Origin: a virus
Taxonomy: Duplodnaviria > Caudoviricetes
Length of the DNA: 64,000 nt
Virus record (IMG/VR): IMGVR_UViG_3300032167_000048
Reading direction: 5' to 3' (one strand)
Shown: piece after piece, positions 1 to 19,082 of the stretch
How the letters are laid out: each line of letters opens with the position of its first letter
Numbering within the stretch: the first letter of the stretch is position 1
Translations under genes and position numbers: made by a program
Notes under the pieces: model-generated
What the model was told of the DNA's origin: nothing
What the model saw: the letters and a program-made list of their open reading frames with translations, nothing else
The model's database searches: none

Positions 1-190
1 GGTTTTTGGGGTGAAAGGGGGGGATGAATGTGGTTGAATGTGGGTTGTGGAGTGGGGATAGAATGCTTTAAAAGTAGGGATTTTTAGTGGTAAGTGGGAG
101 AGTGGTGGGGGTGTAGTGGGGGTGTAGTGAGGGTGTAGTGGGAGAAGAGGGTCGATTTTGGGGTGTTTTTGGGTGTAGAGTGGGGGATGT
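1..190 (+). repeat. G-rich, C-poor low-complexity tract (G-quadruplex potential)
   Basis: Many GGG/GGGG runs and repeated GGGTGTAGTG units in an otherwise very AT-rich genome. Confidence 0.8.
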
Positions 191-252
191 TTTTCTTTTA
201 TATCGCTCCACTAGATACAAAAAAGTTTCTCAACTCGTGTCGCAAGTAAAAG

Positions 253-310
253 TTATCCACATTTTCCACATAGTTTTCCACATTATCCACAATCTGCAAA
301 GTTATCCACA
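253..310 (+). promoter_or_regulatory. Cluster of five co-oriented DnaA boxes
   Basis: TTATCCACA at 253, 283 and 302; TTTTCCACA at 262 and 274; all match TTWTNCACA. Confidence 0.8.
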
Positions 311-313
311 ATC

Positions 314-608
314 TGCCAGTTCCTCCAGTTTCTCCAGTTCAATTCCCAAATCTTCCAGTCGCCCAAAGTTCAGTCAAAGCACAAAGTTAAAGTTTTTAAA
401 AAATAGATTTTTCTGTTTCCAGTCGCTTTTCCAGTCGCTTCTCCAGTCGCCACACCAAACTAAAGTTTTTAAAAATTCCATTTTTCTGTCCAGTCAAATC
501 ACTCCAGTAAAGTTTTTAAAAATTCCATTTTTCTGATTTTCCAGTCGCCTCCAGTCAAGGCACAAAAAAGAGAGTGGATTTTCTCCACTCCCTTTTGAGT
601 TCCAGTAT
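314..608 (+). repeat. Dispersed short direct repeats TCCAGT(CGC)
   Basis: About 12 CCAGT copies, including three near-tandem TCCAGTCGC at 418-450. Confidence 0.7.
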
Positions 609-645
609 TCAGTTGTATGGGGTTATAATCCTATAACCTTATATG

Positions 646-921
646 TTATCCAGTAATAGTAAATCTTCTGCTTACTGTCTGTTTAACATACAATTTGTAA
701 ATGTCAGGACAAGCCGTTTTAAATGTTGTAGTGTCAAATCTGTTACTAGATACATTTTTGTATTTAATACAGTATCTTCCACATTTCATTTCTTCTTTGC
801 TCTGCATTTCTGCTTTGATTTCATCTTTGATAGCTTCGATTTCTTCCTCGGCTTCTTTTACGATTGCTTCAAGTTCTTTGAGTTCTTCAATCTTTTTCAT
901 TAGTTCAATAGTAGTCATCAT
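646..921 (-). CDS. Small coiled-coil phage protein resembling the C-terminal region of YqaJ-type recombinases
   Basis: Own promoter, GGAGG RBS and terminator; RFDTTTFK..CPDIYKLY...SRRF tail. Confidence 0.75.
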   Translation of the reverse strand: MMTTIELMKKIEELKELEAIVKEAEEEIEAIKDEIKAEMQSKEEMKCGRYCIKYKNVSSNRFDTTTFKTACPDIYKLYVKQTVSRRFTITG

Positions 922-1034
922 AAAATTTTCCTCCTAGCATTGGTGCTTTGTTTATACTGTTCTTTTAACTGTCTTTATTATACCACCTATATATCTACTT
1001 GTCAAGTATTTATTTAAAACTTTTTAAATTATTT

Positions 1035-1077
1035 TTTCCGTGTATCTTCCGTGTATCTTCCGTGTATCTTCCGTGTA
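1035..1077 (+). repeat. Tandem 11-bp repeat (TCTTCCGTGTA) x4
   Basis: Directly visible; another copy near 10103. Confidence 0.9.
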
Positions 1078-1465
1078 GTTTATGAACGTATGTTCTAGTT
1101 TGTGAATTTGATATTTTTATGTTATATCACATTCACATTGCATAAAATCTTCCAACTGGCATAGATGTAAAGTTTTTAAATATTCCATTTTTCTGTGCGT
1201 TCTGGAGCATACAAGTAAAGTTTTTAAAAATTAGGATTTTTTGGATGACAGTCCTATATAAATAAAGTTTTTAAAAATTCAATATTTTTGGATTGATAAA
1301 TCAAGATAAATCAACAAGATAAAGTTTTTAAAAATTCAACTTTTTTGGATTGCCAGATATGACAAAGTAAAGTTTTTAAAAATTCAACTTTTTTGGTTTG
1401 TACCTGTGGATGTTACAGCACAAAAAAAGACTAGGCTTTTCGCCTAGTCTTATAACCTTATTTGT

Positions 1466-2062
1466 TTAGTGTTCGTGGAATGCTACGTGTTCGCCATTCT
1501 TTAAGCTCCAACAGTTCACATTCTTCTTTGCACATTCTAAACAGTTTCCAGTACAGATGTTCCAGTTTTCTTTAGGTTCGCAACCTTTAAAGATAACGTG
1601 TGCAACTGGAATATTATGTGGGTTTTCCATTGTCATACCTTCCCATTCTGAAAAGATAAGATGTAAGTTAGTTGGAATGCTTCCACCATTATTGATATAT
1701 GTATTAACAAAATGGTATCTTTTTGTAAATACTAAGATGTCACAATGTGGATTCATTTTTGCTACGTCTACCATATCTACAAGATATTCATAACAAGGAA
1801 TGTCGCCAGCTACGTGCATTCTGAAGAATCGGCTTGTACACATTGCGTCAGATACCTGATTCCAATATTCAACTGGGTTATTCATGTAGAGTTCAAGATT
1901 TCTATTATAAGAATCTCGCACGTTTTTGTATCTACACATTCTTTTTGCGTAGCACTTTTTAGCACAAGTGCAACCGCTCGCACATGTTACGATTGGTGGT
2001 AAAGATACACTTTTAATTTCGCCCATTTTTACATTTCCTTTTGATACACTAATTGTCATCAT
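1466..2062 (-). CDS. GP88-like Cys-rich (radical-SAM-like) protein
   Basis: SLPP..TC...C.CAKKCYAKR, FFRMHVAGD and C-terminal CxxxCxxC; promoter, RBS and terminator. Confidence 0.7.
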   Translation of the reverse strand: MMTISVSKGNVKMGEIKSVSLPPIVTCASGCTCAKKCYAKRMCRYKNVRDSYNRNLELYMNNPVEYWNQVSDAMCTSRFFRMHVAGDIPCYEYLVDMVDVAKMNPHCDILVFTKRYHFVNTYINNGGSIPTNLHLIFSEWEGMTMENPHNIPVAHVIFKGCEPKENWNICTGNCLECAKKNVNCWSLKNGEHVAFHEH

Positions 2063-2149
2063 AATAAATACCTCTCTTTTCTAAGATGCTTTGTTTTATT
2101 TGTTAAGCTAATTATACACTATAAAAAACCACTTGTCAACTACTATTTT

Positions 2150-2395
2150 AAATTTAATTATAATTATTTAATAATAATTATCATATAATTATAGGTCATA
2201 ATTTAATAGGTCATAATTTAATCGGTCATAATTTAATCTGTTATAATTTAATAATTATTATAATAGTAATTATTATCATGTTATAATAGTAATCATTATT
2301 ATTGTAGGTATTGTGCAATTATTTTATATAATTAAAACAATTCAAAATAATTAAAATAGTTTAAACAATTTAAACAATTCAAACAATTTAGTTGG
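2150..2395. repeat. Very AT-rich tract with GGTCATAATTTAAT x3 and AAACAATT(T/C) repeats
   Basis: Visible at 2194-2238 and 2334-2390. Confidence 0.8.
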
Positions 2396-2912
2396 TTAAA
2401 GTTTTTTAAAAATAGGTTTTTTTGTCTATTATAACATATTTTTAATAATTTGTCAAGTAGTTTTATAGAAAATTTTTTAACGTACATATAAGTAAAGTTT
2501 TTAAAAATTGGATTTTTTTGGACTACCAGAACCAGCAAACATATAAGTAAAGTTTTTAAAAATTAGAAAAATTTGGCACAGTCTATATTCTGGAAACATA
2601 AAGCTAAAGTTTTTAAAAATTCGAAAAAATTGGATGCTGGTCGCCTGCCAGATACAACAAACTAAAGTTTTTAAAAATTGGACTTTTTTGTCCCAGCAGG
2701 TCGCAACCGTATATTAAAGTAAAGTTTTTAAAAATTGGATTTTTTTGGATTGCTGGTTGCCGTCTGGGAGAATGGTTTAAAGTTTTTAAAAATTCAACTT
2801 TTTTGGACGCTGGAGCTGTACCAGATACAACGGTTTAAAGTTTTTAAAAATTTAACTTTTTTGGCACGCTCCAGAAAATAAAAAATAAGGGCTGATTTCT
2901 CAGCCCTCATTT

Positions 2913-3230
2913 TTATTCATTCAATAGATAACAATAATCAACTTTCCAACCGTCTACTCCATGCATATACCAATCAAGTCTCACCCCTAAATCTGTTCCA
3001 TCTAAACAATCTGCAAAAATAGAATTGCTTGACTGGTTTGGTAAGAATGCTTTTTGGTCACTGGTAAATTCATAACTGCGTTCTAGCTCTGTATATGGTG
3101 CTGTAAAACTATTCTCTGTAAATACTACAACTCCAGTTAATCGCTTTTCATTGCCTTTTGTTTTGTAGCCGTGTTCTTCGTTGAATTTCCACATTGCTTC
3201 AATCATTTCATTCCAAGTAATTTTTTTCAT
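2913..3230 (-). CDS. Hypothetical cassette protein
   Basis: 105 aa; promoter, GAGG RBS and terminator. Confidence 0.85.
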   Translation of the reverse strand: MKKITWNEMIEAMWKFNEEHGYKTKGNEKRLTGVVVFTENSFTAPYTELERSYEFTSDQKAFLPNQSSNSIFADCLDGTDLGVRLDWYMHGVDGWKVDYCYLLNE

Positions 3231-3570
3231 AGTTTTTACCTCTTTTCTTTATTAAGTTGTTTTATTAGGTTAATACTATTGTAAAGGATAACAAGCTATT
3301 TGTCAAGTAGAATTTTATATTTTTTTAAATTAAATTGATTGATTTTTTCTATAAGTATATATAAAGTTTTTAAAAATTAGATTTTTTAATTAGTAAAGTT
3401 TTTAAATATTTAAAAAAATTGGCAGCAGGCAGCAGTCTGGCATTAACAAAGTAAAGTTTTTAAAAATTGCATTTTTTTGGCTATGCTGGAATAACGGTTT
3501 AAAGTTTTTAAAAATTTAATTTTTTTGGATAAAAAATCCAATAAAAAAAGGAGGACTGCTCCTCCTAATT

Positions 3571-3708
3571 TTATTTAACCTCAAAAGGGACTTCTGCATC
3601 CCAGTCCCATGATTCGTATAAGTCCATCATACGACCAATAGAGTTCTGTGCCAACTCTGGTTTTGCCCCTCTAGATACTTCTAAATCAAAATATTCACTC
3701 CATGTCAT
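3571..3708 (-). CDS. 45-aa acidic cassette protein (not in ORF track)
   Basis: MTWSEYFDLEVSRGAKPELAQNSIGRMMDLYESWDWDAEVPFEVK; AGGAG RBS, promoter at 3757-3785, terminator right after the stop. Confidence 0.8.
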   Translation of the reverse strand: MTWSEYFDLEVSRGAKPELAQNSIGRMMDLYESWDWDAEVPFEVK

Positions 3709-3955
3709 AGCTCAAATCTCCTATTTAAAAATATACTCTGTTCACTTGTTAAATATATTGTATCATGTTAGTTGCTATTTGTCAAGTAGTTTGATTTATT
3801 TTTTTAAATATTTTTTATAAAAATTAAAACCAAAGTTTTTAAAAATTCAACTTTTTTGGATTTAGCTGTATTAAATAAAATTGTAAAGTTTTTAAAAATT
3901 CAATTTTTTTGGCTAGATAAAAATAAAATATAAAAGCACAAAAAAAAGAGACTGT

Positions 3956-4264
3956 TTACCAGTCTCTCTCTTTTGAACGTGGTCTATAACCGAACATGTC
4001 CTTGTGCCAGTCTGAGTAGAATCCCCAAGTTTCATCATCAATCTCATTCCAGCTCTTGCCCTTAATGTTCTTTTCATAGAACGCATCAAACTGTTCTTGA
4101 TTCTCTTCTCGGTATCTCTCATCCATGATTGAGCTTAAAAAGAAGTACTTCTTATATGTAGCATCCCAATCATTATCGCAAGGATTCATTAGTTCTAACA
4201 TGTCGCCAAGTCTTCTCATCTCGCTTCTGATTTCATCGTTAGTCATTGTGTTGTAGTTCATCAT
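3956..4264 (-). CDS. Hypothetical cassette protein
   Basis: GGAGG RBS favours the ATG at 4264; promoter and terminator present. Confidence 0.8.
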   Translation of the reverse strand: MMNYNTMTNDEIRSEMRRLGDMLELMNPCDNDWDATYKKYFFLSSIMDERYREENQEQFDAFYEKNIKGKSWNEIDDETWGFYSDWHKDMFGYRPRSKERDW

Positions 4265-4595
4265 AACTAAGCCCTCCATATATTCTGTTGTTTATATACT
4301 AAGTATACACCACATTTAATAACTTGTCAAGTAGTTTTATAAAATTATTTAAACTTTTTTGCCGTACCTGTCGCCAGCCTGAGTAGAACAACGGTTTAAA
4401 GTTTTTAAAAATTGAAAATTTTTGGCAGCAGGCAGCAGGCGATTAAAGTTTTTAAAAATTCAACTTTTTTGGCTTGCCAGCTGTTTATCGCTGGCAAGTG
4501 GCAGCAGTCAATTAAAGTTTTTAAAAATTTAATTTTTTTGGATTGAAAAAATAAAATAAACATTTTAAGAGAATAAAAAAATGAGCTAGATTTCT

Positions 4596-4841
4596 CTAGC
4601 TCTTTGGCATTCTTACTATTTTGTGTTTACAACAATAGTCATATAATTTTGCTTGATTCATTTCACACATTTCTTGTGTAAAATCATTTACTATTAAGAT
4701 TTCATCTACACATTTACTCATTGTGCTTAACTCACTCTTCCAGCCTCTCATGGTCTTATTTCTGAGTTTTTGTAAACCATTGTTTCCCATTGGATTCTGC
4801 ATTCCTAAACTTCCTAAGTTAATAAATCCTACTGCGTACAT
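4596..4841 (-). CDS. Hypothetical cassette protein
   Basis: 81 aa; AAGGAG RBS, promoter and terminator. Confidence 0.8.
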   Translation of the reverse strand: MYAVGFINLGSLGMQNPMGNNGLQKLRNKTMRGWKSELSTMSKCVDEILIVNDFTQEMCEMNQAKLYDYCCKHKIVRMPKS

Positions 4842-5141
4842 ATTAAGTTCTCCTTTACTTATTGAGTTGTTTTATTTGTTAATATAATGATACACCATAG
4901 CTTGCTATTTGTCAAGTAGTTTATTTAAAATACTTTAAATTATTTTTTGACTGGTGACGGTGACGACACACGGTTGTTGTAGTTGTTAAAATATAGTTTT
5001 TAAATATTTAAAAAAATTGGCAGCAGGCAGCAGGCTTTTAAAGTTTTTAAAAATTGAATTTTTTTGGATTTTAAAAAATAAAAGACAACTTTTAAGAGAA
5101 TAAAATAAGGGCGATAACTTACGTCATCGCCCATCATTTTA

Positions 5142-5399
5142 TTATGCAGTTTTTAAATTGTTTAATGCAAATTTTAAATAATCTAAATCTCCATTGAACT
5201 CCTCATGGCTTTTTACCCAATCATCACTCCACTCATCGAAATCTCCACGAACGGAAATTGTTATATCATTATCTGATATACTCTTGATTCTAGCAATTCC
5301 AAAACCGTCTAATGAATCATGGAAACCTACAAAGAACATAATTTCCATTCCTTCTTTTGCTTCACTAATGTTGTTAATAATAACTGCGTTGTTGTTCAT
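5142..5399 (-). CDS. Hypothetical cassette protein
   Basis: 85 aa; AAGGAG RBS, promoter and terminator. Confidence 0.8.
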   Translation of the reverse strand: MNNNAVIINNISEAKEGMEIMFFVGFHDSLDGFGIARIKSISDNDITISVRGDFDEWSDDWVKSHEEFNGDLDYLKFALNNLKTA

Positions 5400-5797
5400 A
5401 ATGAATCTCCTTTTCTTTATTAAGTTTTATTATTTGTTTTCCAACTGTCTTTAGTATACCACATAAGCAACTACTTGTCAACTACTAATTTAAAATAATT
5501 TAAAATAATTTTTTATCATAGCTTAATAAAGTTTTTAAATATTTAATTTTTCTGGCAGCAGGATGACAATTATATATAACTTTAAAGTTTTTAAAAATTG
5601 AAAAAAATTGGCAGCAGGTTGCCAGAAAAATTAAAAAGGTAAAGTTTTTAAAAATTCGATTTTTTTGTCACCAGACGGCAGCAGGATAAAGTTTTTAAAA
5701 ATTGAAAAAAATTGGCAGCAGGATTCTGGGTTTGATAAAATAGTAAAGTTTTTAAAAATTCGATTTTTTTGGATTTGAAAAGATTATGACTAAACAT

Positions 5798-5917
5798 AAA
5801 AAAAAGAGGGCTGATTTTTCAGCCCTCAAAAAACAACGGATATATATTTTCAACACATCAACAACAACAACAACACTACTAAAAGAAAAGAGAACGTATT
5901 CCGTTGTTTTTTATCTA
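5798..5917 (-). ncRNA. Candidate ~120-nt small RNA cassette
   Basis: Consensus promoter at 5923-5951, no ORF, a 13-bp perfect closing stem (5828-5840 with 5900-5912), then a terminator at 5798-5827. Confidence 0.75.
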
Positions 5918-5970
5918 ATATAATTATACTATAAATTAGTTAATTTGTCAAGTATATTTTTTAATTATTT

Positions 5971-6234
5971 TTACTTTCCAGCAAATCGTGGTAAAAATCT
6001 ATTAAACTCCACAGCTGGATAACTGCTTCTGTCAACGTGGTTAACAATTCCTACAAGGTCGTGTGCAAAGTTAAAGTTATCTGCGTTCAACCAATCTTCT
6101 AATCGCATGTTAAAATACTTATCTGCACTTTCAATATCCATTATAAGTGTTAACCGTTCTCCGTGATAGATTCCAAGCTCCTCTGCTCTTTCAGCTATTT
6201 TAACGTATATCATAAATCTTTCTTTGTCTTTCAT
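5971..6234 (-). CDS. Conserved small phage protein (DUF6874-like)
   Basis: LNADNFNFAHDLVGIVNHVDR...FLPRF motif; promoter and RBS. Confidence 0.65.
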   Translation of the reverse strand: MKDKERFMIYVKIAERAEELGIYHGERLTLIMDIESADKYFNMRLEDWLNADNFNFAHDLVGIVNHVDRSSYPAVEFNRFLPRFAGK

Positions 6235-6529
6235 AGTAATCGCTCCTTACTTGTTTTATTTAAGTTAATTATAACGCATATTCTTCTATTTGTCAAGTAG
6301 TATTTTATATTTTTTAACAAACTTTTCCTGAGCTAAAAAAATGTAAAGTTTTTAAAAATTGCATTTTTTTGGCGAGGTGGCAGCAGGCTGGACAAGTTTT
6401 TCAAAATTGATAAAAACTGTCCAGCTGGCAGCAGGATTCTAAAGTTTTTAAAAATTACATTTTTTTGGATTATGGCAGCAGGATGTCGGACAATGAAAAA
6501 GAGCGGTAGATTTCTCCACCGCTCTTGTT

Positions 6530-6904
6530 TTATACTAGCACCGCCTTTACTAATAACATCATGTTTGGTATAAATACTTCCCTTCCGAGTTCCTCACGGA
6601 CTATGTTTATTTGTCTGTCGGTCAATCCAATTGTGTTTCCCTCATCATCATGACTTACAAATACGCAATTACCCATGATTAAATCTAATACTCTGTTTCC
6701 ATCTCTGTCTAGTACTGCAACTTGAGGTTCAAGTCCAATTAACTTACCCTCTTCATTTATAATTGGGTCAATTCTTTCTTGTATGAATCTTTCGCACATA
6801 TATGCTCTTTCAATCCATCCACCAACTATTTCTTGCATAGTTTCTAAACTGTTTTCAATTTCTTTTTCTTTTAAGATTCCGTTTTCTAATACTATTGCTC
6901 TCAT
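6530..6904 (-). CDS. DUF3846-like protein
   Basis: NSLETMQEIVGGWIE...INEEGKLIGLEP motif. Confidence 0.75.
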   Translation of the reverse strand: MRAIVLENGILKEKEIENSLETMQEIVGGWIERAYMCERFIQERIDPIINEEGKLIGLEPQVAVLDRDGNRVLDLIMGNCVFVSHDDEGNTIGLTDRQINIVREELGREVFIPNMMLLVKAVLV

Positions 6905-7299
6905 GTTAAGCTCTCCTTTTCTTTTTGCTTTGTTATTATATATACATTATAACGCTAATTATTTATATTGTCAAGTAGTTTTATTAAATTTGTTTAAAAT
7001 ATTTCTCCAGTCGTCCACCTGTGACTCTGGTGTTATAGTTTTTAAATATTGAGAAATTTTGGAAAAACGCGTATACATTTAAAGTTTTTAAAAAATCAAT
7101 TTTTTTGGCAGCAGGTTGCCAGACAGGAATGGCACTCTAAAGTTTTTAAAAATTGAAAATTTTTGGCAGCAGGATACCAGATAAAATAATAAGTTAAAGT
7201 TTTTAAAAATTGGATTTTTTTGGATTATGCAAATCTGGTTTTAAACTAAACAAAAAAAGAAGAGTTGATTTCTCAACTCTTCCTATATAACCTTGTTTG

Positions 7300-7557
7300 T
7301 TAGTGTGCTACTTCTAAGCTACACCACCAAGCCTTACCTCCTCCGTTAATTCCTAACATATCAATAAAAGCGTTAATGTGTTTCATTGTAGTTGCACTGT
7401 AATCATCCCAAAGTCGTTCAAATCGTCCCTCATGCACTCTAGCAACGATTGTGTTGTAACTCTTTAATTCAATGTCGCCATTGTCTTTTTCAATTACTGT
7501 TGCTTTTCCGTAGAATGATTTCTGTCTGTTGTTTGGTTTAAGTTCGTAAGTTCTCAT
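7300..7557 (-). CDS. Hypothetical phage protein
   Basis: 85 aa, KSFYGKA...LKSYNTIVA...YSATTMKH; full cassette signals. Confidence 0.8.
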   Translation of the reverse strand: MRTYELKPNNRQKSFYGKATVIEKDNGDIELKSYNTIVARVHEGRFERLWDDYSATTMKHINAFIDMLGINGGGKAWWCSLEVAH

Positions 7558-7864
7558 GATGTTCTCTCCTTTTGAAATGTGTTATTTGTTTTATCTGTCT
7601 TTATTATAATGCATATATAACTATTTGTCAAGTAGTAAAATGAAATTTGTTTAAATTATTTTTTAGCTGGTGACACACGGTTGTTGTCGTTGTTATTATT
7701 TTAAAGTTTTTAAAAATCGATTTTTTTGACTCAACCGTTTTAGTTAAATAAAGTTTTTAAATATTTAAAAAAGTTGGCAGCAGGATGCCAGATAAAACAA
7801 CGGTTTAAAGTTTTTAAAAATTGGATTTTTTTGGATTAGACAGGCAAAAAAATATGTGTGGCGA

Positions 7865-8245
7865 CTACCACACATATTTATCATAAAGCTCTTTGATTTC
7901 ATCTTCGTTTTTTGTCTTTACACATTTATCAATGAGTTTAATATATGTATAAACCATATCATTATGTCTTTGCTGTTGTCTGTACTGGCTATAATCGTCA
8001 ATATACTGTACATATTTATCATAACCCCTTAAGAAGTATTCCATTACATCCTTTTTGTTGTCTTCTGTAATTTTAACTACTTCTCTGACTCTGTCTGTTT
8101 TTTTGATAGTTTCTAAATACGTTTTGTTTCCACTATCTTTGTCTACCTCGCAATTATTTAAATAATATTCTTTTTTACCATTTTCCTCTAATGTTAAGAA
8201 TAAATAATCTTTTTCAATTCCCTTCATTTTAACTAATACGTTCAT
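7865..8245 (-). CDS. Hypothetical cassette protein
   Basis: GGAGGT RBS favours the ATG at 8245; the track start at 8290 overlaps the promoter. Confidence 0.8.
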   Translation of the reverse strand: MNVLVKMKGIEKDYLFLTLEENGKKEYYLNNCEVDKDSGNKTYLETIKKTDRVREVVKITEDNKKDVMEYFLRGYDKYVQYIDDYSQYRQQQRHNDMVYTYIKLIDKCVKTKNEDEIKELYDKYVW

Positions 8246-8536
8246 GTTTGTACCTCCGTGCGTTGTTTCTTGTTGATTATATATTATCACATAAAAGATA
8301 TATTGTCAAGTAGTTTTGGATAAATTTGTTATTTTTTTCTGCTGTTAAAGTTTTTAAAAATTCATTTTTTTGACACGCCAGACGCATAAACGTAAAGTTT
8401 TTAAATATTTAATTTTTTTGGATTATGAAAACAGGATGTGGCATAAAGTTAAAGTTTTTAAAAATTCGATTTTTTTGGCATATAAAAAAATAAAAGAAAG
8501 ATTTTAAGAGAAATAAAAAAGGAGCTTTTCAGCTCC

Positions 8537-8722
8537 TTAAAACATGCATCCTATAATGTATAATGCAAATAACATTACAAAGATTGAAAGTGCTCCAACG
8601 AAGTCGAGTGCTTCTTCTTTTGAAATACCCCATTCATTCCAAAATCTTCTGAAACGAATCTTTGCATATTTTTTAATAAGTTTAATCTTTCTTTTATCTT
8701 CTTTGCTTAATAATGTTTTCAT
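8537..8722 (-). CDS. Small membrane protein
   Basis: Basic N-terminus, C-terminal hydrophobic helix; RBS, promoter and terminator. Confidence 0.75.
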   Translation of the reverse strand: MKTLLSKEDKRKIKLIKKYAKIRFRRFWNEWGISKEEALDFVGALSIFVMLFALYIIGCMF

Positions 8723-9158
8723 AATGTTTTCTCCTTTAAATATATGCTTCGTTTGTTGTTAATATTATGTTACCACATGTTTAATATAATGTCAAGTAGT
8801 TTTTTAAATATTTTTTATTTTTTCTGACTGGAATTAACTGGAGTGTACAGCGATTAAATAGTAAAGTTTTTAAATATTTAATTTTTTTGGCAGCAGGCAG
8901 CAGGACACTATTAGTTTTTAAAAAATGAGAAATTTTGGAAAAACGCGTATACATGTTAAAGTTTTTAAATATTTGATTTTTTTTGGATTGACCGTTTTTA
9001 CACATTTAAAGTTTTTAAATATTCAACTTTTTTGGATTTGATTTTTTTAGATTTTAAAAATGTAAAGTTTTTAAAAATTCGATTTTTTTGGCATGAAAAG
9101 AAATATAAAAAATAGCAATAAAAAAAGAACACGTTGTTTCCAACGTGTTCCATATGTT

Positions 9159-9416
9159 TTAAAATACGGATTCTAATAGACCACTAAAGCTGTTAGCTTC
9201 TTGTCTTTTGCGAATCATACTGTAATGATTCATACGAGCATCATACAATGTTGTTGCTCTCATGTATTCAATTTCAGTTCCGTCTGAGTAAAGTGCCATT
9301 GTTTCGTAAAATGGTCTCTTCTCATCGCTAAAGTATACTGTTGAGATATACTCATCTTTATTTGAGTACTGTGTATTAGGTTTACTGTGTAAAATGTGAA
9401 GTGATATTCTAGTCAT
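9159..9416 (-). CDS. Hypothetical cassette protein
   Basis: 85 aa; AAGGAGG RBS, promoter and terminator. Confidence 0.8.
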   Translation of the reverse strand: MTRISLHILHSKPNTQYSNKDEYISTVYFSDEKRPFYETMALYSDGTEIEYMRATTLYDARMNHYSMIRKRQEANSFSGLLESVF

Positions 9417-9672
9417 AATATTGACCCTCCTTAAGTAATATGTTGTTGTATTGCCCTCTTGAGCTATTTATAGTATATCAAATGATACATACGTTGTCAA
9501 GTAGTTTCATTAAATCTTTTCAATTTTATTTTCACAGGTGGTTTTTACATTAAAGTAAAGTTTTCAAAAATTCCATTTTTTTGGCGTGACCGTTTCAGTA
9601 TTTTAAAGTTTTTAAAAATTCCATTTTTTTGGCGTGACAAATTAAATAAAAAAAGAAGGTCTTGTGACCTTC

Positions 9673-9834
9673 TTAATTTTCCTTGAAAAATGCAGTTACT
9701 GTTTTTTCCACGTCTATTTCTGCATCTTCTCTTGCATCTGCAATGTTTACAGCATCTTCAAAGAACATTGCTTCAATATATTCATCAAATGATTCTCCGT
9801 TTTCTTTTTTAAAATAAATGTGCCATTTCTTCAT
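9673..9834 (-). CDS. 53-aa acidic cassette protein (not in ORF track)
   Basis: MKKWHIYFKKENGESFDEYIEAMFFEDAVNIADAREDAEIDVEKTVTAFFKEN; GGAGG RBS, promoter at 9879-9907, terminator. Confidence 0.8.
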   Translation of the reverse strand: MKKWHIYFKKENGESFDEYIEAMFFEDAVNIADAREDAEIDVEKTVTAFFKEN

Positions 9835-10374
9835 AATAAAATCCTCCGTATGTGTGTTGTATTGTTTTAACTGTCTTTATTATACATGATAAAAAGTATT
9901 ATGTCAAGTATTTTATTTAAATTTGTTTAAATTTATTCAAATTTTCCGAGCCACCGAAAGTTTAGAAATTGGAAAGTTTAAAATGTAAAGTTTTTAAAAA
10001 TTGAATTTTTTTGGAATATTCCGAGCGATAGAAAAATAGTTATTCCAAATGTTTAAAAACTTTATCACAATTATTCCTAATGTTTAAAAACATTTATTCA
10101 TATATCTTCCGTGTGATTGACAAATAAGTTTTTAAAAAATATATTTTTTTGTTTTACATATTTTCCAGTTGTAATTATGTATAATATAAATATTATTTTA
10201 AAGTTTTTAAAAATTCGATTTTTTTGGCTTGAATAAATTTTATCCAGACTGACGACAGGTTTTATCCATATTGGCAGCAGTCAATAATAAAAATGTAAAG
10301 TTTTTAAAAATTGCATTTTTTTGGCAAGTGGCAGCAGGCGACTAATTTTCCTATTCGCCAAAAGTGTTTGTTTA

Positions 10375-10800
10375 AATTTTCCGTTAGGTGCAAAGATTAA
10401 GTTAATTTATTCCGTTAGATTCCATTGATTTATTCCGTTAGATTCCATTGGTTTATTCTGCTTATTATATTATTGCTTATAATGTGTTTATTTTCCGTTT
10501 TAAGCTATGATATGTATTATATAGATATAAATATATAATGATATATTTAAAGCGTGTTTAAAGCGTTTTTAAAGCGTGTTTAAAGCGTGTTTACGCAAGC
10601 CCAAAGATTTTCCATGCAAGCCTACGATATAACGTCAAATCTTCCGTTTATCGCACGTTATATAGTACGTTGTAGCACGTTATATAGTACGTTGTATATA
10701 TACGTATACGATAGAAAAAATAATTGCATCCTGACGTTTTAAAAATTTTCCGTTAAACGCAAAGATTAGTTTAAAAACTTTCCGTTAAACGTAAAGTATA
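10375..10800. repeat. Non-coding block of mixed tandem and direct repeats
   Basis: TTTATTCCGTTAGATTCCATTG x2, TTTAAAGCGTGT x4, GCACGTTATATAGTACGTTGTA x2, TTTCCGTTAAACG x2. Confidence 0.85.
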
Positions 10801-10859
10801 TAAATGTAAAGTTTTTAAAAATTAGATTTTTTTGGTTTGTTAGCAAATAAAAAGAAGAG

Positions 10860-11222
10860 CTATCTCATAGCTCTTCTTCTTTTCGCTTCTTCAAGTCGCT
10901 TCTGAAACTCTTGTCTTCTTGCTTCTCTCTCTTCTTTTGATAAGATACCATGCTTCTTAAGGTATGCTGGGATTTCAGATTCTGCAATATATCTATCTGT
11001 GATATCATGATAGTCAATCGCTGGGTCACCAGTCTCTACAAAGCTCTCTAAGTGCACCAAATAAAACAACTCTTTGCTCATTTCACTTGTATGTGGGATA
11101 TTCAAACAGATTCTGCATTTTGTGTAGTTTGAGATGCTACCGAATGCGTACTCCATAATCATATCATTCTTTTCGCTTGCTACAAAACCTCTTGATAATA
11201 AATCGTATTTTAATTTTAACAT
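10860..11222 (-). CDS. Hypothetical protein
   Basis: GGAGG RBS favours the start at 11222 (MLKLKYD); terminator overlaps the stop. Confidence 0.75.
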   Translation of the reverse strand: MLKLKYDLLSRGFVASEKNDMIMEYAFGSISNYTKCRICLNIPHTSEMSKELFYLVHLESFVETGDPAIDYHDITDRYIAESEIPAYLKKHGILSKEEREARRQEFQKRLEEAKRRRAMR

Positions 11223-11302
11223 AATCTTGACCTCCAACTTTTTGCAATTTTTAAAAACTTTACTTTTCTTATTTGCTGGGGCTAATTTGTTAGCCCCATT
11301 CT

Positions 11303-11596
11303 TTACCATTCGTATCTTCTATACTCTTCGTATGCTTCGTAAATGCTTGTCATACTACACTGTGCAACCTCTGCACTTCCCCATGAATCGTGTCTGTAGT
11401 TAAACTCTTTCTTTTCATAGCGTTTTTTGTATGTTCTCGCTTCCTTGTCACAGGACTTTACGTAAAAGTCCTGAATTCTACTCTTCTCTTCTCTCTCCCT
11501 CTCTTCTCTTCTTCTTTTTGCTACCTCTTCTGGAAAATTCATTTCCTCGATAAATTCGAAATATGCGTCAATACTCTGAAATCTAATTCTTGCCAT
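11303..11596 (-). CDS. Hypothetical charged protein
   Basis: GAGG RBS favours the start at 11596 (MARIRFQ). Confidence 0.75.
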   Translation of the reverse strand: MARIRFQSIDAYFEFIEEMNFPEEVAKRRREEREREEKSRIQDFYVKSCDKEARTYKKRYEKKEFNYRHDSWGSAEVAQCSMTSIYEAYEEYRRYEW

Positions 11597-11686
11597 TTTA
11601 ATATCCTCACTTTCAATTTTTTGCAATTTTTAAAAACTTTACTTTGTGGTTTTTGGGGAAAGGGCTTTCGCCCTTTCCTTATAACC

Positions 11687-12706
11687 TTACTGGTATTTTT
11701 TGTAGATACCTACCAGCTTTTTCGCAGCCACATCTGCTTTGTGCTTGCGATACTCTGTTTTGGATGGAATTCGGTTTCCATTTACGTCCAATTTTGGGCT
11801 TCCGTCAGAGCTTTTTCTGTAGTATCTTCTTGTATCAATTTCCGTGTCATTGAAGTGTTCACAGAAGTTTCTTACGATACACTGCACCATTTCTACCTCC
11901 ATTTTCATGAGGTTCTGATACTGCTTTGCACTCACGAATTTGTTGATTCGGAATTCGATATTGTTATTTGCAAGGCAATTTACAAAGTAGTATCTATCAT
12001 CGTGTTCTTCCTGCTTGCTATTCCAGTCGATTGTGTCGGCATATCCGTTGAAGTATCTACCGAAAACTCTTTCAGTTGTTTCTCTATCGGCTTTCATTTC
12101 CTCGCATAATGGAATGAAAAGGCTATTGTAGAAACGTCTTACCATGTCCATGTATGAACCTTTGCCTGTGTTTTTGCCATTAGCATCTTTCATGCTATTG
12201 ATAGATACATGGAAGTGTGTACCACATGAGCTATTCACTTTTAAAATACCCTCATTCATGAGGTCTTCGCATGTCTGTGCAAACTTGCTTGGTCTGTTCA
12301 AGCCTTGCATAATCGCGGACACATATTCACAAGTGTTTCTATCGCGGCCGTATCTTGCACCATAGCCATCGCTTCTGAGGGAGCTGTCGTGTGTTGGGAT
12401 AAACCCATATTCAAACATGGCATTTCTGAGCTTGTCATCTGAAAAGCTGGTTTCGAATTCGATACCACAGAGCACGCCATTCTTTTTGGCAGTACCCATG
12501 ATTTTTTCATTTGCAGTATGATACCATAAGTTTCTAGCCGCGCATGTTGGGCACATGAGGCTTGCACGTCCTCCGCGCTTGCGGGAAATTGTACGTGTCA
12601 TAATTTCAATTGGAAAGTCGTGTCTACAGCAAGAGCAAGTTGCCTCGATGCGTCCGTGTCTACGTGTTGCGTTTGCGTCTGTGTTCATTGTGTTGATAGT
12701 TGTCAT
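11687..12706 (-). CDS. Putative amidoligase (COOH-NH2 ligase family) with an N-terminal Zn-finger
   Basis: GIEFE, HDSSL, EYVS, SCGTHFHVS and IEFR motifs; CSCC..CPTC; AAGGAGG RBS. Confidence 0.75.
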   Translation of the reverse strand: MTTINTMNTDANATRRHGRIEATCSCCRHDFPIEIMTRTISRKRGGRASLMCPTCAARNLWYHTANEKIMGTAKKNGVLCGIEFETSFSDDKLRNAMFEYGFIPTHDSSLRSDGYGARYGRDRNTCEYVSAIMQGLNRPSKFAQTCEDLMNEGILKVNSSCGTHFHVSINSMKDANGKNTGKGSYMDMVRRFYNSLFIPLCEEMKADRETTERVFGRYFNGYADTIDWNSKQEEHDDRYYFVNCLANNNIEFRINKFVSAKQYQNLMKMEVEMVQCIVRNFCEHFNDTEIDTRRYYRKSSDGSPKLDVNGNRIPSKTEYRKHKADVAAKKLVGIYKKYQ

Positions 12707-12899
12707 AGTTTTGTTCCTCCTTGATTTGAAAAAGTGTTTTGTTGTTTTCTGAGGCTAATACATCATAAAAATTTCTCTACGTCAATAGAAAGTTTTTAAA
12801 TTCTTTATTTTTCTGGAAACTTGCAAGTTTTTGCGTGGGGTGGGGGTGGTTTACAATTAAAAGTCGGAGGGGCGAGCCGCGTGGGGGAGAATGTAGTAC

Positions 12900-13170
12900 A
12901 CCTAATCCTATACACCCAACCCACCGTCCGATACAACCCAACACACAATCCACTCTCCACCCCCCCATTTCACATTTCCAACACGTCCCCCTATCCCAAC
13001 TAAACAAAACACCCCAAATACCCAAAGCAAATATCCGCCCCTCTCTTCCAACAACTCAACAATCCAACAACAACCATATCTCCCAACCAAACACATCAAA
13101 TCCCCATCCAAGACCAACAATATCTACTACTACCACAAAACTCTACCTATACCCTATACCCCCCTATTTC
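12900..13170 (-). repeat. C/A-rich tract (G-rich on the minus strand)
   Basis: Almost G-free 270 bp with many CCC runs; compositional mirror of 1-190. Confidence 0.8.
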
Positions 13171-13248
13171 ACAATAATTCAGGAAACCAATAATATGTGC
13201 TATTATATATACCTCCCTCCCCATATTGAAAATTTCTCTAAAAACTAC

Positions 13249-13277
13249 TTGACAATTTACAGAAAATGGTGTATAAT
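13249..13277 (+). promoter_or_regulatory. SigmaA-type promoter for the RNAP operon
   Basis: ACTACTTGACA-N17-TATAAT, same family as the cassette promoters. Confidence 0.85.
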
Positions 13278-13539
13278 GACATCAACAAATAAAAACAAAT
13301 TGTTTTAAAATACAACTAATAAGGTTATAAAAATATTAGCACAAAAACAAAATACATAAAACGAAAGTTAACATCCTGAGCGATAGCTCAGTAGTATACT
13401 TATATGTAATGTTATTCTTATATGTATGAACGGAAAAGTTACATACATTTTGTACGGTGCTAAATGGTGATTATGGTTTGAGCACCGTACATTTTGTACG
13501 GTGGTCGTAAAATACAAATGCAGGAGGTGATAATTATTA

Positions 13540-14436
13540 ATGCCAACAGATAACACGACTTATGAACTTATTGATGGAAAGTATGAATATAAAAGAGTTC
13601 CATTAGAAGAACATCAGTCAGAGCACATATATATACCTTGGTCTGTTATCGCAAATACAAATCTGGATACAAGAAGAGTTGGGATATTTTCATATTTGAG
13701 AATACATCGTGGATTAAACAATGTTGTGAATCTAACTATTCCAGATGTTGTTGAGTGGTGTGGCGGTAAGCCAGATAGAAGAACAAATGGTACAAATGAC
13801 AAATTCTTATCTGTATTAGATAGCTTTGCTGAATATGGATATTTAACATATATTTCAGAAAGAAGTAAAAGTTCTTATATGAAATGCAAATTTGACAAAC
13901 AATATTATGGCAAGCAATGTGGAAATGGTTATGCAGTGGTTTATTTAGATGAAATTGAATCTATTATGAATTATCAAAAAGAAAATCTAAAAGATAGCAC
14001 TGTAAATAATTTTATTATTCTTTTGGTATTTGCATATTTAAGATATAAGATTATACGTAGACCAAATATGTTAAAGCCAGAAGAAAGAAGCTCAGAAATG
14101 ATAGAGAAAAGACGAATGAAATTGCCAGATGCTTATAATGGCAATCTTATAGATATGGCTGATGAGATAGGAATATCTTCTAAAACTCTATCGAAGATAA
14201 TTAATATACTTGAATGTGACCTACATTTAATTGTTACAGATAGAGCATATAGAATTAGAACAGAAGACGATGAGTATAGAACTCCTCCTACTATATTTGC
14301 AAACGCTTATAAAAGAGAAGATAAATATTTACTTATGACTGGCGATGAATATAGTAGAAATGAAATTGAATTAAAAGCTAAAAAAATCAAGAAATTCATT
14401 AGGGATTTCGAAATTAATAAAACAATAAGAAAATAG
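13540..14436 (+). CDS. Putative HTH DNA-binding or replication-initiator-like protein
   Basis: AGGAGGTG RBS; two winged-HTH-like segments (LIDMADEIGISSKTLSKIINIL). Confidence 0.55.
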   Translation: MPTDNTTYELIDGKYEYKRVPLEEHQSEHIYIPWSVIANTNLDTRRVGIFSYLRIHRGLNNVVNLTIPDVVEWCGGKPDRRTNGTNDKFLSVLDSFAEYGYLTYISERSKSSYMKCKFDKQYYGKQCGNGYAVVYLDEIESIMNYQKENLKDSTVNNFIILLVFAYLRYKIIRRPNMLKPEERSSEMIEKRRMKLPDAYNGNLIDMADEIGISSKTLSKIINILECDLHLIVTDRAYRIRTEDDEYRTPPTIFANAYKREDKYLLMTGDEYSRNEIELKAKKIKKFIRDFEINKTIRK

Positions 14437-14650: not shown

Positions 14651-17569
14651 ATGAGCTTGGATGTTCAGGTTCAGATTCTAAGTGTTGATACTGGAAACTT
14701 CTATAGTAATAAAGAAGCTTACCTTCATTGGTTTAATCATAAGCTTAGAATTGAAAGAAATGAATTAAAGAAAAAAGAAAATGAAATTATAAATGAGTTT
14801 TCTAAATATGGAATTGATAAAAATGATTTAGAACTAATTGCAAATAAAGATTATGATTATAGTTCTTGGGGAGAAGATAAACATACTTTGCTTACTCTTG
14901 GAATGGATTATTGTAGAGTGAGAGAATTAGTGAAACTAAAGAATAAGAAAATAAAAGAATCAAAAGATAGATTATTAGATTTATTATCAAATAAAATTGA
15001 AGCAAACATATCTACAAATGGAAAACATCATATTAGAGAATTAAGAAATTTAAATCCATCTGGTTCAAAAGGAGATATTCTTAAATTTGCAAATGAACCA
15101 TTTAATAATAATAAAATTATATCTGTATTTGATTCTGCTTTTACAAGAATGATTGGAGCAAAGCAGGATGAATTAACAGAAGATTTTATGGTTGTGCAGG
15201 TATATTACTTTGATATTATTAAGGACTTAATTTATCATGGATTTACATATAAGGGAGAAAAATATATTTACTTTACATCTTCTGCTGGTCAGATTAGAAC
15301 AAAGAAAACAGTATTCGTAAAAGAATCTGTTTGGAAAAAATATGAGAAGACAATTATGTGTGGACTTACAATTGATTCTATTAATGAAAAAGGTGGTAAT
15401 AATCCAAATAAGCATTTAGCGTATATGGCTTTAACAAACTCAGCTACAGATGTTTGGAAAGAGTTTGATATTGATAAGACGATTGTGGTAAATGATTTTG
15501 CAACTGACGTATTTGGAACTTATGATTTGGTAGATGATGTTGATTATTCTATTAAACGTATATCTGATTATGTACCAATTGAACATACAGATGGTGCTGG
15601 TATGATGTTGCCATGTATGGGCAAGAACAGAATGGTTCGTCTTCCTTGGGTAAAAGGATTGCTTGGTTCTTTTGATTATTTGAAATTTATTAAAGAAAAT
15701 AATTGTTCTCCAATAATTAAAGACATATATGGTGTTGAACATGATGTAATAGCAGAAGATATTCAGATTATATTTACAAAGTCTCAGTTTAAGATGTGTA
15801 AGTATTATGATTCTTGGGAACAGTACAAGGGATATTATAAGAAGTATGGTTGCTCTGCTGGATATACCAATATGGAAGAAGATAAGATTAAGGATGCAAC
15901 AATTAATTATCAAATGCTTCAAACACTTACTGATATTACAGATGAAGAAATAGACAATATTATTGAGAAGTCTAAAAATAACTTAGACGATTTAAAAACT
16001 CTTAATGGTATTAAAAGAGCATTTGGCATTACTCCATATAATGATAATATGACATATTTGCAACAAGCTATTAATTTGTATCCGTCATTATTAAATGATG
16101 AATATATGAAAATCACTTTAAGAGAAATAAAAGATAGCTTGGTAAAAAGATATAGGTCTGGTAGTTTAGCAATAAAAGGAAAATATACATTTATACTCCC
16201 AGACTTGTATGCGGCTTGTGAACATTGGTTTATGGGAATTGAAAATCCAAAAGGATTATTAGACGATGGAGAAGTTTTTTGCTGGCTGTTTAAAAAAGAC
16301 GATAAGCTGGATTGTTTAAGAAGTCCTCATTTATATAAAGAACATGCAATTAGAACAAATATTGCTTGTAATAAATATAAAGAACGTCAACAGCAAATTC
16401 GTGAATGGTTTGGAACAGATGCTATTTATACAAGCTGTCATGATTTAATTAGTAAGATTCTTCAGTTTGACGTTGATGGAGATAAGAGTTTAGTAGTAGC
16501 TGATAAAAGTATAGTTGATGTAGCAGAAAGAAATATGAAAGGCATTGTGCCACTATATTACAATATGAAAAAAGCTTCTCCTATTCAATTAAATAATCAG
16601 ACCATTTATAATGGATTAAATGCAGCTTTTGTTGGTGGCAATATTGGGATTTATAGTAATAATATTTCTAAAATTTGGAATAGTGATGTTTTTATTAGTG
16701 GAACAGAAGAAGAGAAACAAAGAGCAATAAATTTAGTTAAGTTATTGTGCATGGAGAACAACTTTGTTATTGACTATGCAAAAACATTATATAAACCAGA
16801 AAGACCAGATTCTGTTCATGAAGAGATTATTAATTTTACAAAAGATAATGTGCCACACTTTTTCGTATATGCAAAGGATAAGGGTGATTCTCAGGTTGAA
16901 GATGCAAATGAAAGCTTTGTAAATAAACTTGAAACTAAAATCAAAAATCCAAGAATTAATTGTAGAAACTTAAAAGGATATGATGGTAATAAACTTGGTA
17001 ATATTGATTATAAAAAATTAGTAAGTAATCCAGATGTGGAATGTAAAATTGCATTTAATAAAAATGGAACAGTTAATGATGAGTTGTCTGACCCAATGAT
17101 TGTTAAATATTTTGAATTAAATAATAAATATCATTTTAAAGTTAATATGGAATGTGCAGATATGATAAGGGGTGAATTATTAAATAATACACAATTAAAA
17201 CAAGATTTGTTCTTTAAGAAGATTGCAAATGAAATTAGATATGAGCTTTCTCAGTTTGGATATTCTGATTTGGAAGTAACAGATATTTTAGTTAAATTAT
17301 TATATCATATTAAACCTAGTAGCCATAAGAGTGTGCTTTGGTTTTGCTATGGTAAATATATAGTTGATAATTTAATAAATAATAATTGCAAACCAAAAAC
17401 AAAAGCAATTAAATGTGTTGATTGTGGAGAATGGATAGAAGTTGAAAACGATAAGAAGCATTTAAAAACTTGTAGATGTGAAACTTGTGATTACGAATAT
17501 AAGAAAATGCTTAAAGCAAAGCAGAATAAACGTGCATATTTAAAAAATAAAAAAATCAGTAGCGATTAA
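14651..17569 (+). CDS. yonO: YonO-like single-subunit DNA-dependent RNA polymerase
   Basis: Catalytic QFDVDGD motif, TDGAG, RLPWVKG, LRSPHL, C-terminal Zn ribbon; position upstream of an HU-like gene and the morphogenesis operon as in SPbeta. Confidence 0.85.
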   Translation: MSLDVQVQILSVDTGNFYSNKEAYLHWFNHKLRIERNELKKKENEIINEFSKYGIDKNDLELIANKDYDYSSWGEDKHTLLTLGMDYCRVRELVKLKNKKIKESKDRLLDLLSNKIEANISTNGKHHIRELRNLNPSGSKGDILKFANEPFNNNKIISVFDSAFTRMIGAKQDELTEDFMVVQVYYFDIIKDLIYHGFTYKGEKYIYFTSSAGQIRTKKTVFVKESVWKKYEKTIMCGLTIDSINEKGGNNPNKHLAYMALTNSATDVWKEFDIDKTIVVNDFATDVFGTYDLVDDVDYSIKRISDYVPIEHTDGAGMMLPCMGKNRMVRLPWVKGLLGSFDYLKFIKENNCSPIIKDIYGVEHDVIAEDIQIIFTKSQFKMCKYYDSWEQYKGYYKKYGCSAGYTNMEEDKIKDATINYQMLQTLTDITDEEIDNIIEKSKNNLDDLKTLNGIKRAFGITPYNDNMTYLQQAINLYPSLLNDEYMKITLREIKDSLVKRYRSGSLAIKGKYTFILPDLYAACEHWFMGIENPKGLLDDGEVFCWLFKKDDKLDCLRSPHLYKEHAIRTNIACNKYKERQQQIREWFGTDAIYTSCHDLISKILQFDVDGDKSLVVADKSIVDVAERNMKGIVPLYYNMKKASPIQLNNQTIYNGLNAAFVGGNIGIYSNNISKIWNSDVFISGTEEEKQRAINLVKLLCMENNFVIDYAKTLYKPERPDSVHEEIINFTKDNVPHFFVYAKDKGDSQVEDANESFVNKLETKIKNPRINCRNLKGYDGNKLGNIDYKKLVSNPDVECKIAFNKNGTVNDELSDPMIVKYFELNNKYHFKVNMECADMIRGELLNNTQLKQDLFFKKIANEIRYELSQFGYSDLEVTDILVKLLYHIKPSSHKSVLWFCYGKYIVDNLINNNCKPKTKAIKCVDCGEWIEVENDKKHLKTCRCETCDYEYKKMLKAKQNKRAYLKNKKISSD

Positions 17570-18214: not shown

Positions 18215-18370
18215 CGTTATATTAATAGCTTAACTGCTATATATCAGTGGAAACACTGTTTATATATAGCCACTTATTATCTTTGGTAATATGTGGTACT
18301 TCTTTTCATTCATTTTTTATAACCTTTCTTTGGCGGAGTATTTACTTAATTGTGGGTGCTCTGCTTTTTT

Positions 18371-18442
18371 GGCTCTATAGTATATCGGTTAGTACACTAG
18401 CCTGTCACGCTAGAAAGGCGAGTTCGATTCTCGCTAGAGTCG
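18371..18442 (+). tRNA. tRNA-Asp(GTC)
   Basis: Cloverleaf; CTAGC-CTGTCAC-GCTAG; GTTCGA T-loop. Confidence 0.9.
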
Positions 18443-18446
18443 TTAT

Positions 18447-18519
18447 CGCCCTGTGGACAAGTGGTTTAAGTTACATCCCTTTCACGGATGCGTCAGGGGT
18501 TCGATTCCCCTCAGGGTGA
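18447..18519 (+). tRNA. tRNA-Glu(TTC)
   Basis: CATCC-CTTTCAC-GGATG anticodon arm. Confidence 0.9.
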
Positions 18520-18527
18520 TTTGTTTT

Positions 18528-18618
18528 GATAAGGTGGCAGAGCTGGTTTAATGCACCAGATTGCTAATCTGGCGTACTTTGTTTAAAAGTACCGTGGGGT
18601 CGTAGCCCACCCTTATCG
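18528..18618 (+). tRNA. tRNA-Ser(GCT)
   Basis: CCAGA-TTGCTAA-TCTGG, long variable arm, atypical T-loop GTCGTAG. Confidence 0.8.
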
Positions 18619-18623
18619 TTTTT

Positions 18624-18813
18624 GTCGCCATAGAGACGTAAAACCTATGGTAGCGTTCTCTGCTGCGGAGAATGAAAATATGAGCAGAATAACGGAAAAG
18701 CTGGGGCGTACTCAGTAGTCATGCATTTGACACGTCAAGGTGAAAGAGGTATTGCGGTACACTACGCATTAGAAATAGTGAGAAGCCATGAGCAAGACAT
18801 GAATATCTTGCAA
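18624..18813 (+). ncRNA. Candidate structured ncRNA within the tRNA cluster
   Basis: GC-richer non-coding 190 nt with several hairpins; not a cloverleaf. Confidence 0.45.
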
Positions 18814-18817
18814 ATTT

Positions 18818-18901
18818 GCTGTGTTGGCTCAATTGGTACAGCAGCGGTCTTGAAAACCGCCATTCCGAAAGGATATCTGAGTTCAAGTCTCAGGCACAGC
18901 G
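18818..18901 (+). tRNA. tRNA-Ser(TGA)
   Basis: GCGGT-CTTGAAA-ACCGC with a variable arm. Confidence 0.9.
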
Positions 18902-18910
18902 TTTTTTTAT

Positions 18911-18991: not shown

Positions 18992-19004
18992 TGATTTATA
19001 ATAT

Positions 19005-19077: not shown

Positions 19078-19082
19078 TTCAT

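Follow-up and report, generated by a model that had tools for sequence, protein, structure and literature searches.

A conserved and structured small RNA gene in the early region of an SPbeta-like gut phage, with complementarity to the leaders of neighbouring early genes

The small RNAs known from phages are mostly of enterobacterial prophage origin and have host genes as their targets, and to our knowledge very few sRNAs with a known function come from virulent or large phages of Gram-positive bacteria. The c4 RNA of P1 and P7 and the CI RNA of P4 are processed from the operon that they control, act on two sites of one transcript and serve lysogenic immunity. In Firmicutes, sRNAs with C-rich loops such as RsaE/RoxS and RNAIII mask the Shine-Dalgarno (SD) sequence. 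Other sRNAs, of the DapZ/MicL type, are embedded in 3' UTRs and have an internal promoter. Among systems that act on many mRNAs, GcvB uses a GU-rich seed to silence CA/ACA-rich translation enhancers located beside the SD (PMC3879156), and RegB of phage T4 inactivates early mRNAs at the SD (PMC1702504, PMC3014915); the c4 RNA is mentioned in PMC8198154.

The locus described here belongs to a phage contig known from animal feces metagenomes, of which a stretch of 64,000 nucleotides (the window) was analysed. The window has a GC content of around 31%, and its terminase is around 47% identical to those of SPbeta/phi3T-type Bacillus phages; the phage can be assigned to the SPbeta-like gut siphoviruses, from low-GC gut Firmicutes. 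Positions 1-10,900 of the minus strand constitute a bank of small genes, in which each gene is preceded by a near-perfect TTGACA-17-TATAAT promoter with a short leader and is followed by a terminator, and tRNAs and structural genes are found in the plus-strand block from 13.5 kb on. The early leaders have a common layout, in which an AACAA/CAA-rich 5' part is followed by an A/G-rich stretch that leads into the SD. The RNA gene at 5798-5951 is one unit of this minus-strand early bank. Its features, together with those of the upstream gene, are the following:

5971..6234, minus strand: upstream gene of 87 aa (DUF6874 / phrog_12453), which is read from a separate promoter at 6296..6268 and lacks an own terminator
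5923..5951, minus strand: promoter TTGACA-17-TATAAT, sigma-A-type consensus, 12/12 matches
~5916, minus strand: transcription start predicted from the promoter
5900..5912, minus strand: 5' arm of the closing stem, AAAAAACAACGGA, from fold and covariation
5881..5894, minus strand: CU-rich tract UUCUCUUUUCUUUU, predicted to be the seed that pairs with the purine-rich SD region in early leaders
5859..5874, minus strand: (GUU)5G repeat, predicted partner of the (A)ACAAC-rich 5' halves of leaders
5841..5858, minus strand: distal loop, AUGUGUUG + AAAAUAUAUA, poorly conserved
5828..5840, minus strand: 3' arm of the closing stem, TCCGTTGTTTTTT (also written UCCGUUGUUUUUU), also antisense to leader 5' ends
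5806..5827, minus strand: terminator hairpin of 9 bp, 6 of them GC
5798..5805, minus strand: U8 (T8) tail of the terminator

The initial annotation had proposed a cassette without protein, in which a perfect promoter and a terminator enclose around 120 nt and a 13-bp stem displays a loop, and each of these elements was recovered. All 12 promoter positions match at 5923-5951, the terminator consists of the 9-bp hairpin plus U8 at 5798-5827, and the predicted RNA, counted from the start at ~5916, has a length of 119 nt, its sole ATG frame being 'MC*', without SD. The 13-bp stem (5912-5900 with 5840-5828) encloses a 59-nt loop (5899-5841) that is open in the centroid structure and contains the (GUU)5 predicted to pair with CAA-rich leaders. 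The predicted fold of the 119-nt RNA has -33.4 kcal/mol (z = -4.9), in such a way that none of 200 shuffles equalled it. The ends of the RNA and its transcription are predicted from sequence, and the sequencing runs that contain the element correspond to animal feces and gut metagenome DNA, none of them being of RNA type. With its own promoter, a terminator, no ORF, compensatory changes and seed complementarity in silico, the element has the general attributes of an sRNA gene, and it is very probably a real conserved sRNA. Two other readings of the locus were rejected: a plus-strand gene using the leader-like reverse complement (no start codon follows that leader-like stretch, and a 45-aa plus-strand ORF at 5786..5923 overlaps the covarying stems) and a riboswitch or attenuator (the ~350 nt that separate the terminator from the next promoter, at 5481, are gene-free repeats).

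The RNA and GcvB have in common a multi-target design, a terminator with a U-tail and a single-stranded G/U-rich seed; for the phage RNA, this seed is predicted to bind C/A-rich sequence that extends from upstream of the SD into it in many mRNAs. The comparison with GcvB made in the initial annotation stands as an analogy (GU-rich seed, CA-rich targets) and fails as family membership, with no homology in sequence or structure and no match to the GcvB model (RF00022) in a cmscan of positions 1-14000 at E <= 1. Whereas GcvB is Hfq-dependent and encoded in the chromosome of Gammaproteobacteria near gcvA, the phage RNA is encoded in the early region of an SPbeta-like siphovirus from animal feces, has a second, CU-rich seed module directed against the SD flank, and its predicted regulon consists of the phage's own early units. 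It resembles the c4 and P4 CI RNAs as a phage small RNA predicted to act in trans on reiterated complementary sites in its own early transcripts, but it is encoded independently, between a promoter and a terminator that belong to it alone, and has ~14 separate predicted target units, and the C4 model of Rfam did not match the RNA gene in the same cmscan (1-14000, E <= 1). The parallel with RegB would be the collective post-transcriptional inactivation of early mRNAs through a common feature of their ribosome-binding sites, only proposed for the RNA; RegB, however, is a nuclease made of protein, whose cleavage at GGAG is assisted by S1, whereas the agent proposed here is a base-pairing RNA. With DapZ/MicL it shares a terminator common to the upstream ORF and the sRNA, together with an own sRNA promoter, and with RsaE/RoxS and RNAIII a pyrimidine-rich loop displayed on a stem and facing the SD region. 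From the sRNAs of these last two kinds it differs in being phage-borne, in its unrelated sequence and in having a U-rich instead of a C-rich seed plus a trinucleotide repeat.

Relatives were reached through the neighbouring DUF6874 gene, and then by pattern scans that covered collections of viral contigs, metagenomes and genomes. The promoter-hairpin-terminator module comes after the DUF6874 gene in the two closest contigs, and at least six homologues besides the window were found: L001 (with the near-identical L222), L002, L151, L193, L241 and L288. L002 and L151 belong to contigs of 89.7 kb and 82.7 kb, and the contig of L288, of 154.8 kb, had been binned with a fecal Clostridia MAG. The size of the family, at least seven phage or fecal-metagenome contigs including the window, is a lower bound. 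Each homologue has its own promoter and terminator, the promoter being TTGACA-17-TATAAT or TATAGT in 6/6 relatives, at equal distance from the hairpin. A covariance model (R1) that runs from the promoter through the AAAACAA-initiated closing stem, the CU tract, (GUU)n, an AU-rich spacer and the 3' arm to the terminator scored 99.1 bits (E = 2e-14) for the window and 96-122 bits for the other members.

Over ~1.9 Mb of fetched loci R1 detected nothing further that was convincing. A match of 45.8 bits at L001:1265-1388 corresponds to the end of a coding region plus a terminator and is not a family member, and the remaining matches, of at most 39.2 bits (top, L193:6534-6579) and mostly of 40-130 nt, were taken as terminator look-alikes. 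R1 found no copy in 26 more distant relatives with the same DUF6874 neighbour gene (L003-L028), and therefore the RNA is dispensable for early regions of this type. Searches by other means were also negative: megablast of 5500-6300 against 50,697 phage records gave no match, a more sensitive blastn against phage records matched only the promoter part, and the exact-stem pattern had zero matches in viral contigs. A loose loop pattern returned chance matches among the matches listed, and a pattern without the GUU requirement returned 42 loci, 0 of which passed R1. Rfam 15 had no match at 5798-5951 (cmscan of 1-14000, E <= 1), and a search of the published literature found no comparable phage sRNA. 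The RNA is a new, well-supported, structured family absent from Rfam, and the known mechanistic kind to which it probably belongs is the base-pairing sRNA.

Covariation in relatives, one of the checks proposed at the outset, was found in both helices. In an alignment of 8 sequences only, fitted to the model (A4), 98.1% of the cells are paired and 11/20 pairs show double changes, values matched by 0/500 shuffles, and slid-partner controls reached at most 57% paired; in the terminator hairpin, 8/9 pairs covary. The distal part of the closing stem is unlike in each lineage and complementary throughout (CGGA/UCCG, CAGUUGC/GCAACUG, ACAGCAUA/UAUGCUGU, UGGUAUAA/UUAUACCA, CGGUAUAA/UUAUACCG and UGGUAUGC/GCAUACCA), with a clean C-G to U-A exchange between L193 and L288. 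The CU tract is CUUCUUUUCUUUU in five sequences with differing stems and CUUUUUCCUUUCUUUU in L002, its natural variants across the family being UCUC (window), CUUC and UUCC (L002), and for each of them there are leaders that match. Since this tract is constant while the stems differ but stay paired, selection acts on the shape of the stem and on the sequence of the loop. The length of (GUU)n varies: at one extreme the tract is split or interrupted (GTGTTGTTGT), and at the other it comprises seven or eight perfect units. Between L001 (position 4345) and the near-identical L222 the (GTT)n differs by one unit, L222 having one GUU more, and in L002 a GC-rich mini-hairpin lies inside the GUU repeat.

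Other elements of these genomes were also recorded. The gaps between cassettes (window 370-10850, plus strand) carry more than 40 co-oriented copies of a ~28-nt repeat, TAAAGTTTTTAAAAATTnnATTTTTTTGG, many of them followed by GGCAGCAGG, in an orientation that opposes early transcription. The same repeat is found at 4460-4600 of L001 and downstream of the sRNA in L193 and L288, and L002 and L241 have another repeat, CGTATAATATAC, at the matching place. A phage factor could use these inter-cassette repeats as binding sites or as promoters. A second consensus promoter without an ORF behind it (2456..2428, minus strand, extended -10; region 2139-2456) reads through tandem repeats of 9 nt and 15 nt (2191-2388) into the next cassette, and a similar promoter-into-repeats unit lies at 5518 of L001. 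On the plus strand of the window, eight tRNA genes (Asp, Glu, Ser x2, Thr, Asn, Ala and Met) occupy 18370-19235, with a 197-nt gap that separates both tRNA-Ser genes. A 972-aa protein encoded at 14651-17569 (plus strand) matches Pfam RdRP (PF05183, E = 9e-8), which we take to be the signature of a YonO-type single-subunit RNA polymerase of SPbeta-like phages; YonO, the single-subunit RNA polymerase of SPbeta, likewise matches Pfam RdRP. The presence of this protein suggests that the host sigma-A enzyme transcribes the minus-strand cassettes and that a polymerase of the phage transcribes the late genes.

The complementarity between the loop and the early leaders was then the central claim of the initial annotation, which had named these four leaders:

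3231..3271, minus strand: leader of 2913..3230, best exact loop match, 11 nt AAAGAAAAGAG at the SD, with AACAAC upstream
2063..2104, minus strand: leader of 1466..2062, 10-nt run AGAAAAGAGA, duplex of -23.2 kcal/mol
6905..6939, minus strand: leader of 6530..6904, 10-nt run AAAAGAAAAG, duplex of -25.4 kcal/mol that covers GGAG
5400..5446, minus strand: leader of 5142..5399, 9-nt run AAAGAAAAG

The antisense runs of 11, 10, 10 and 9 nt were reproduced exactly, AACAAC was found upstream of the SD match of 2913..3230 in the right order, and the description of the other leaders as CAA-rich agrees with the 5' parts common to the early leaders; a further 9-nt antisense run, ACAACAACA, is present in the leader behind promoter 9500. 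The modules of the loop are antiparallel to the leader, with the CU tract at the 5' side, against the SD region, and (GUU)n at the 3' side, against the CAA-rich part, in such a way that the predicted duplexes are co-linear over most of each leader and cover the SD. Shuffled controls, also proposed at the outset, gave a modest result for the exact runs alone (P ~0.03, with mono- or dinucleotide shuffles of the loop), and a stronger one for the full duplex, with a mean loop-leader energy in the window of -24.6 kcal/mol versus -18.4 +/- 1.7 for dinucleotide shuffles (z = -3.7, 0/200). The reversed loop, of the same composition, gave -19.4 kcal/mol, around 5 kcal/mol worse. When loops were paired with the early start regions of their own phage in the window, L001, L002, L193 and L241, z ranged from -3.2 to -4.0 against dinucleotide shuffles and the true loop was 5-6 kcal/mol better than the reversed one, these five phages being related and their z-scores not independent tests.

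Early start regions of the window pair better than late ones (-24.6 vs -16.6 kcal/mol, P = 6e-6). Because the reversed loop also favours early over late start regions (-19.4 vs -14.8 kcal/mol), much of this preference is compositional. In a scan of both strands of the window, early leaders were 6/17 of the best non-self windows, against a background of 31/6396; the enrichment (hypergeometric P ~3e-10) is calculated on 6 leaders in the top 20 scan windows, which include three of the RNA's own antisense, and many non-leader windows have scores near those of the leaders. Pairing was no better than with shuffles for the leaders behind promoters 4330, 3785 and 6296; the leaders of genes 3956..4279 and 5971..6234 are weak partners of the loop. 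The coding start of gene 5142..5399 (5347-5400, minus strand, ATGAACAACAAC...) is among the best predicted partners of the loop, with -31.6 kcal/mol, and for this reason the pairing of the sRNA may extend into some coding regions.

On these grounds the RNA may be an anti-leader sRNA that acts in trans and covers the ribosome-binding region in the mRNAs of sibling early cassettes; this is the reading with the most support, and we consider its chances evenly balanced. That it would act in trans, that it would repress rather than activate, and the timing of its action are inferred by us from the sequence. A base-pairing sRNA could also be directed at host mRNAs with CA-rich or purine-rich ribosome-binding regions, as a host-takeover tool, the match to sibling leaders being a by-product of look-alike strong leaders. 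The gene sits among early cassettes of host-takeover type and has a host-type promoter, its GU/CU-rich seed is promiscuous, and known phage and prophage sRNAs act mostly on host mRNAs (PMC12197685). However, the CU tracts of the window and L002 each match their own leaders better than the other's tract does, with own-leader Watson-Crick runs of 11, 10, 10, 9 vs 8, 7, 7, 7 for the UCUC tract of the window, which suits GAGA-type leaders, and of 13, 11, 8 vs 7, 7, 6 for the UUCC tract of L002, which suits GGAA-type leaders. Against host targets there is also the fact that in L193 the reverse complement of the RNA aligns over ~57 nt with the leader of the next cassette. We consider an exclusive direction towards the host unlikely. 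The tracts of these two lineages, compared with partial leader sets, hint that CU tract and leaders may co-evolve; in the cross-phage matrix, for which the relatives contributed incomplete leader sets, diagonal dominance was confined to the window and L002, and for the L001 leaders the tracts of L193 and L241 are slightly better partners than that of L001 itself.

The likeness to leaders extends to the whole hairpin. Its reverse complement is as similar to leaders as leaders are to each other (in L001, 26.0 vs 21.5), far above shuffles, and the 5' arm of the stem, AAAAAACAACGGA, looks like the 5' end of an ordinary cassette leader (AAUAAAACAAC). Because both the reverse complement and the 5' arm are leader-like, the most fitting description of the RNA is the start of a leader with an inverted leader after it. 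The initial annotation had feared a non-conserved inverted leader relic; the inverted leader holds at the level of sequence, and the non-conserved relic is excluded by the conservation of the RNA in at least seven contigs. It is, in effect, an inverted leader kept by selection, with compensatory changes, in seven contigs.

This origin would also fit a role only in cis, or no selected trans role at all, the element being what remains of a decayed cassette, with an inverted leader duplication whose only use would be as 3' UTR, terminator and stabiliser for the upstream gene. In 7/7 contigs 42-54 nt separate the end of the upstream ORF from the predicted start, this ORF is without a terminator, and the more distant relatives are without the element. 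Since transcription of the DUF6874 gene meets no terminator before the sRNA, its mRNA should extend across the sRNA, which would double as the 3' UTR of that gene. But the promoter is retained directly before the hairpin in 7/7 copies, and the CU tract has been conserved despite compensated drift in the stems. Moreover, three phages have DUF6874 as the upstream ORF and three others have an unrelated protein of 68 aa there, and since two unrelated genes precede it, the sRNA module is a unit of its own as well as the 3' UTR of whichever gene is upstream. The leader of the DUF6874 gene itself shows the weakest pairing of all (-16.3 kcal/mol, z = -0.2), which also argues against this reading, to which we assign a low probability.

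We find it improbable that the loop and U-tail act as a sponge or decoy, U-rich or GU-rich, that titrates a single-strand RNA-binding protein of the host (Hfq, S1, cold-shock proteins or an RNase) or of the phage. The conserved loop is indeed unstructured, pyrimidine- and GU-rich and placed on a stable stem, and its repeat number varies as would be the case for reiterated binding sites; however, the order and polarity of the loop modules mirror those of the leaders, the reversed loop is 5-6 kcal/mol worse, and a protein site driven by composition needs no such order. A micro-peptide read from the GUU repeat, for instance a Val/Leu/Cys-rich one, is highly improbable, for GTG and TTG codons are plentiful in the repeat but there is no SD and no conserved ATG frame (the L001 element has no ATG on either strand), the repeat of L002 is interrupted by a hairpin and the changes in the stem are compensatory at the RNA level.

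If the RNA acts as the proposed anti-leader sRNA, the host sigma-A RNA polymerase would start at ~5916 and stop at the terminator, giving an RNA of ~119 nt with a 5'-proximal 13-bp hairpin, a large single-stranded loop and the terminator hairpin with its U-tail, and transcripts that read through from upstream would contain this sequence as their 3' UTR. The (GUU)n would pair with the CAA-rich 5' half of the leader and the CU tract with the purine-rich stretch that includes the Shine-Dalgarno, in many of the ~14 sibling early mRNAs; the seed would tolerate differences between leaders because U pairs with A and G, and G with C and U. Ribosome-binding sites would thereby be occluded and the mRNAs possibly exposed to decay, and as the sRNA, expected to be stable from its 5'-proximal hairpin, builds up, the early gene bank would be damped or shut off. 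A delayed shut-off needs an extra assumption, e.g., a greater stability of the sRNA, since its promoter is of the same kind as those of its targets. The fuller version of this proposal, in which an sRNA born as an inverted cassette leader is the master anti-leader that silences ~14 independently transcribed early (host-takeover) mRNAs, its seed co-evolving with the leaders, is tentative, and we give it somewhat less than an even chance.

Whatever its role in timing, the finding adds a clearly structured RNA family that is absent from Rfam. Its predicted regulon, the phage's own bank of early leaders, would be unusual. If the proposal is true, an RNA antisense to the common early leader would represent a new post-transcriptional timing of the phage programme, in which uniform leaders could be used as a common regulatory handle, and it would be an RNA-based counterpart of the early shut-off by RegB in T4.
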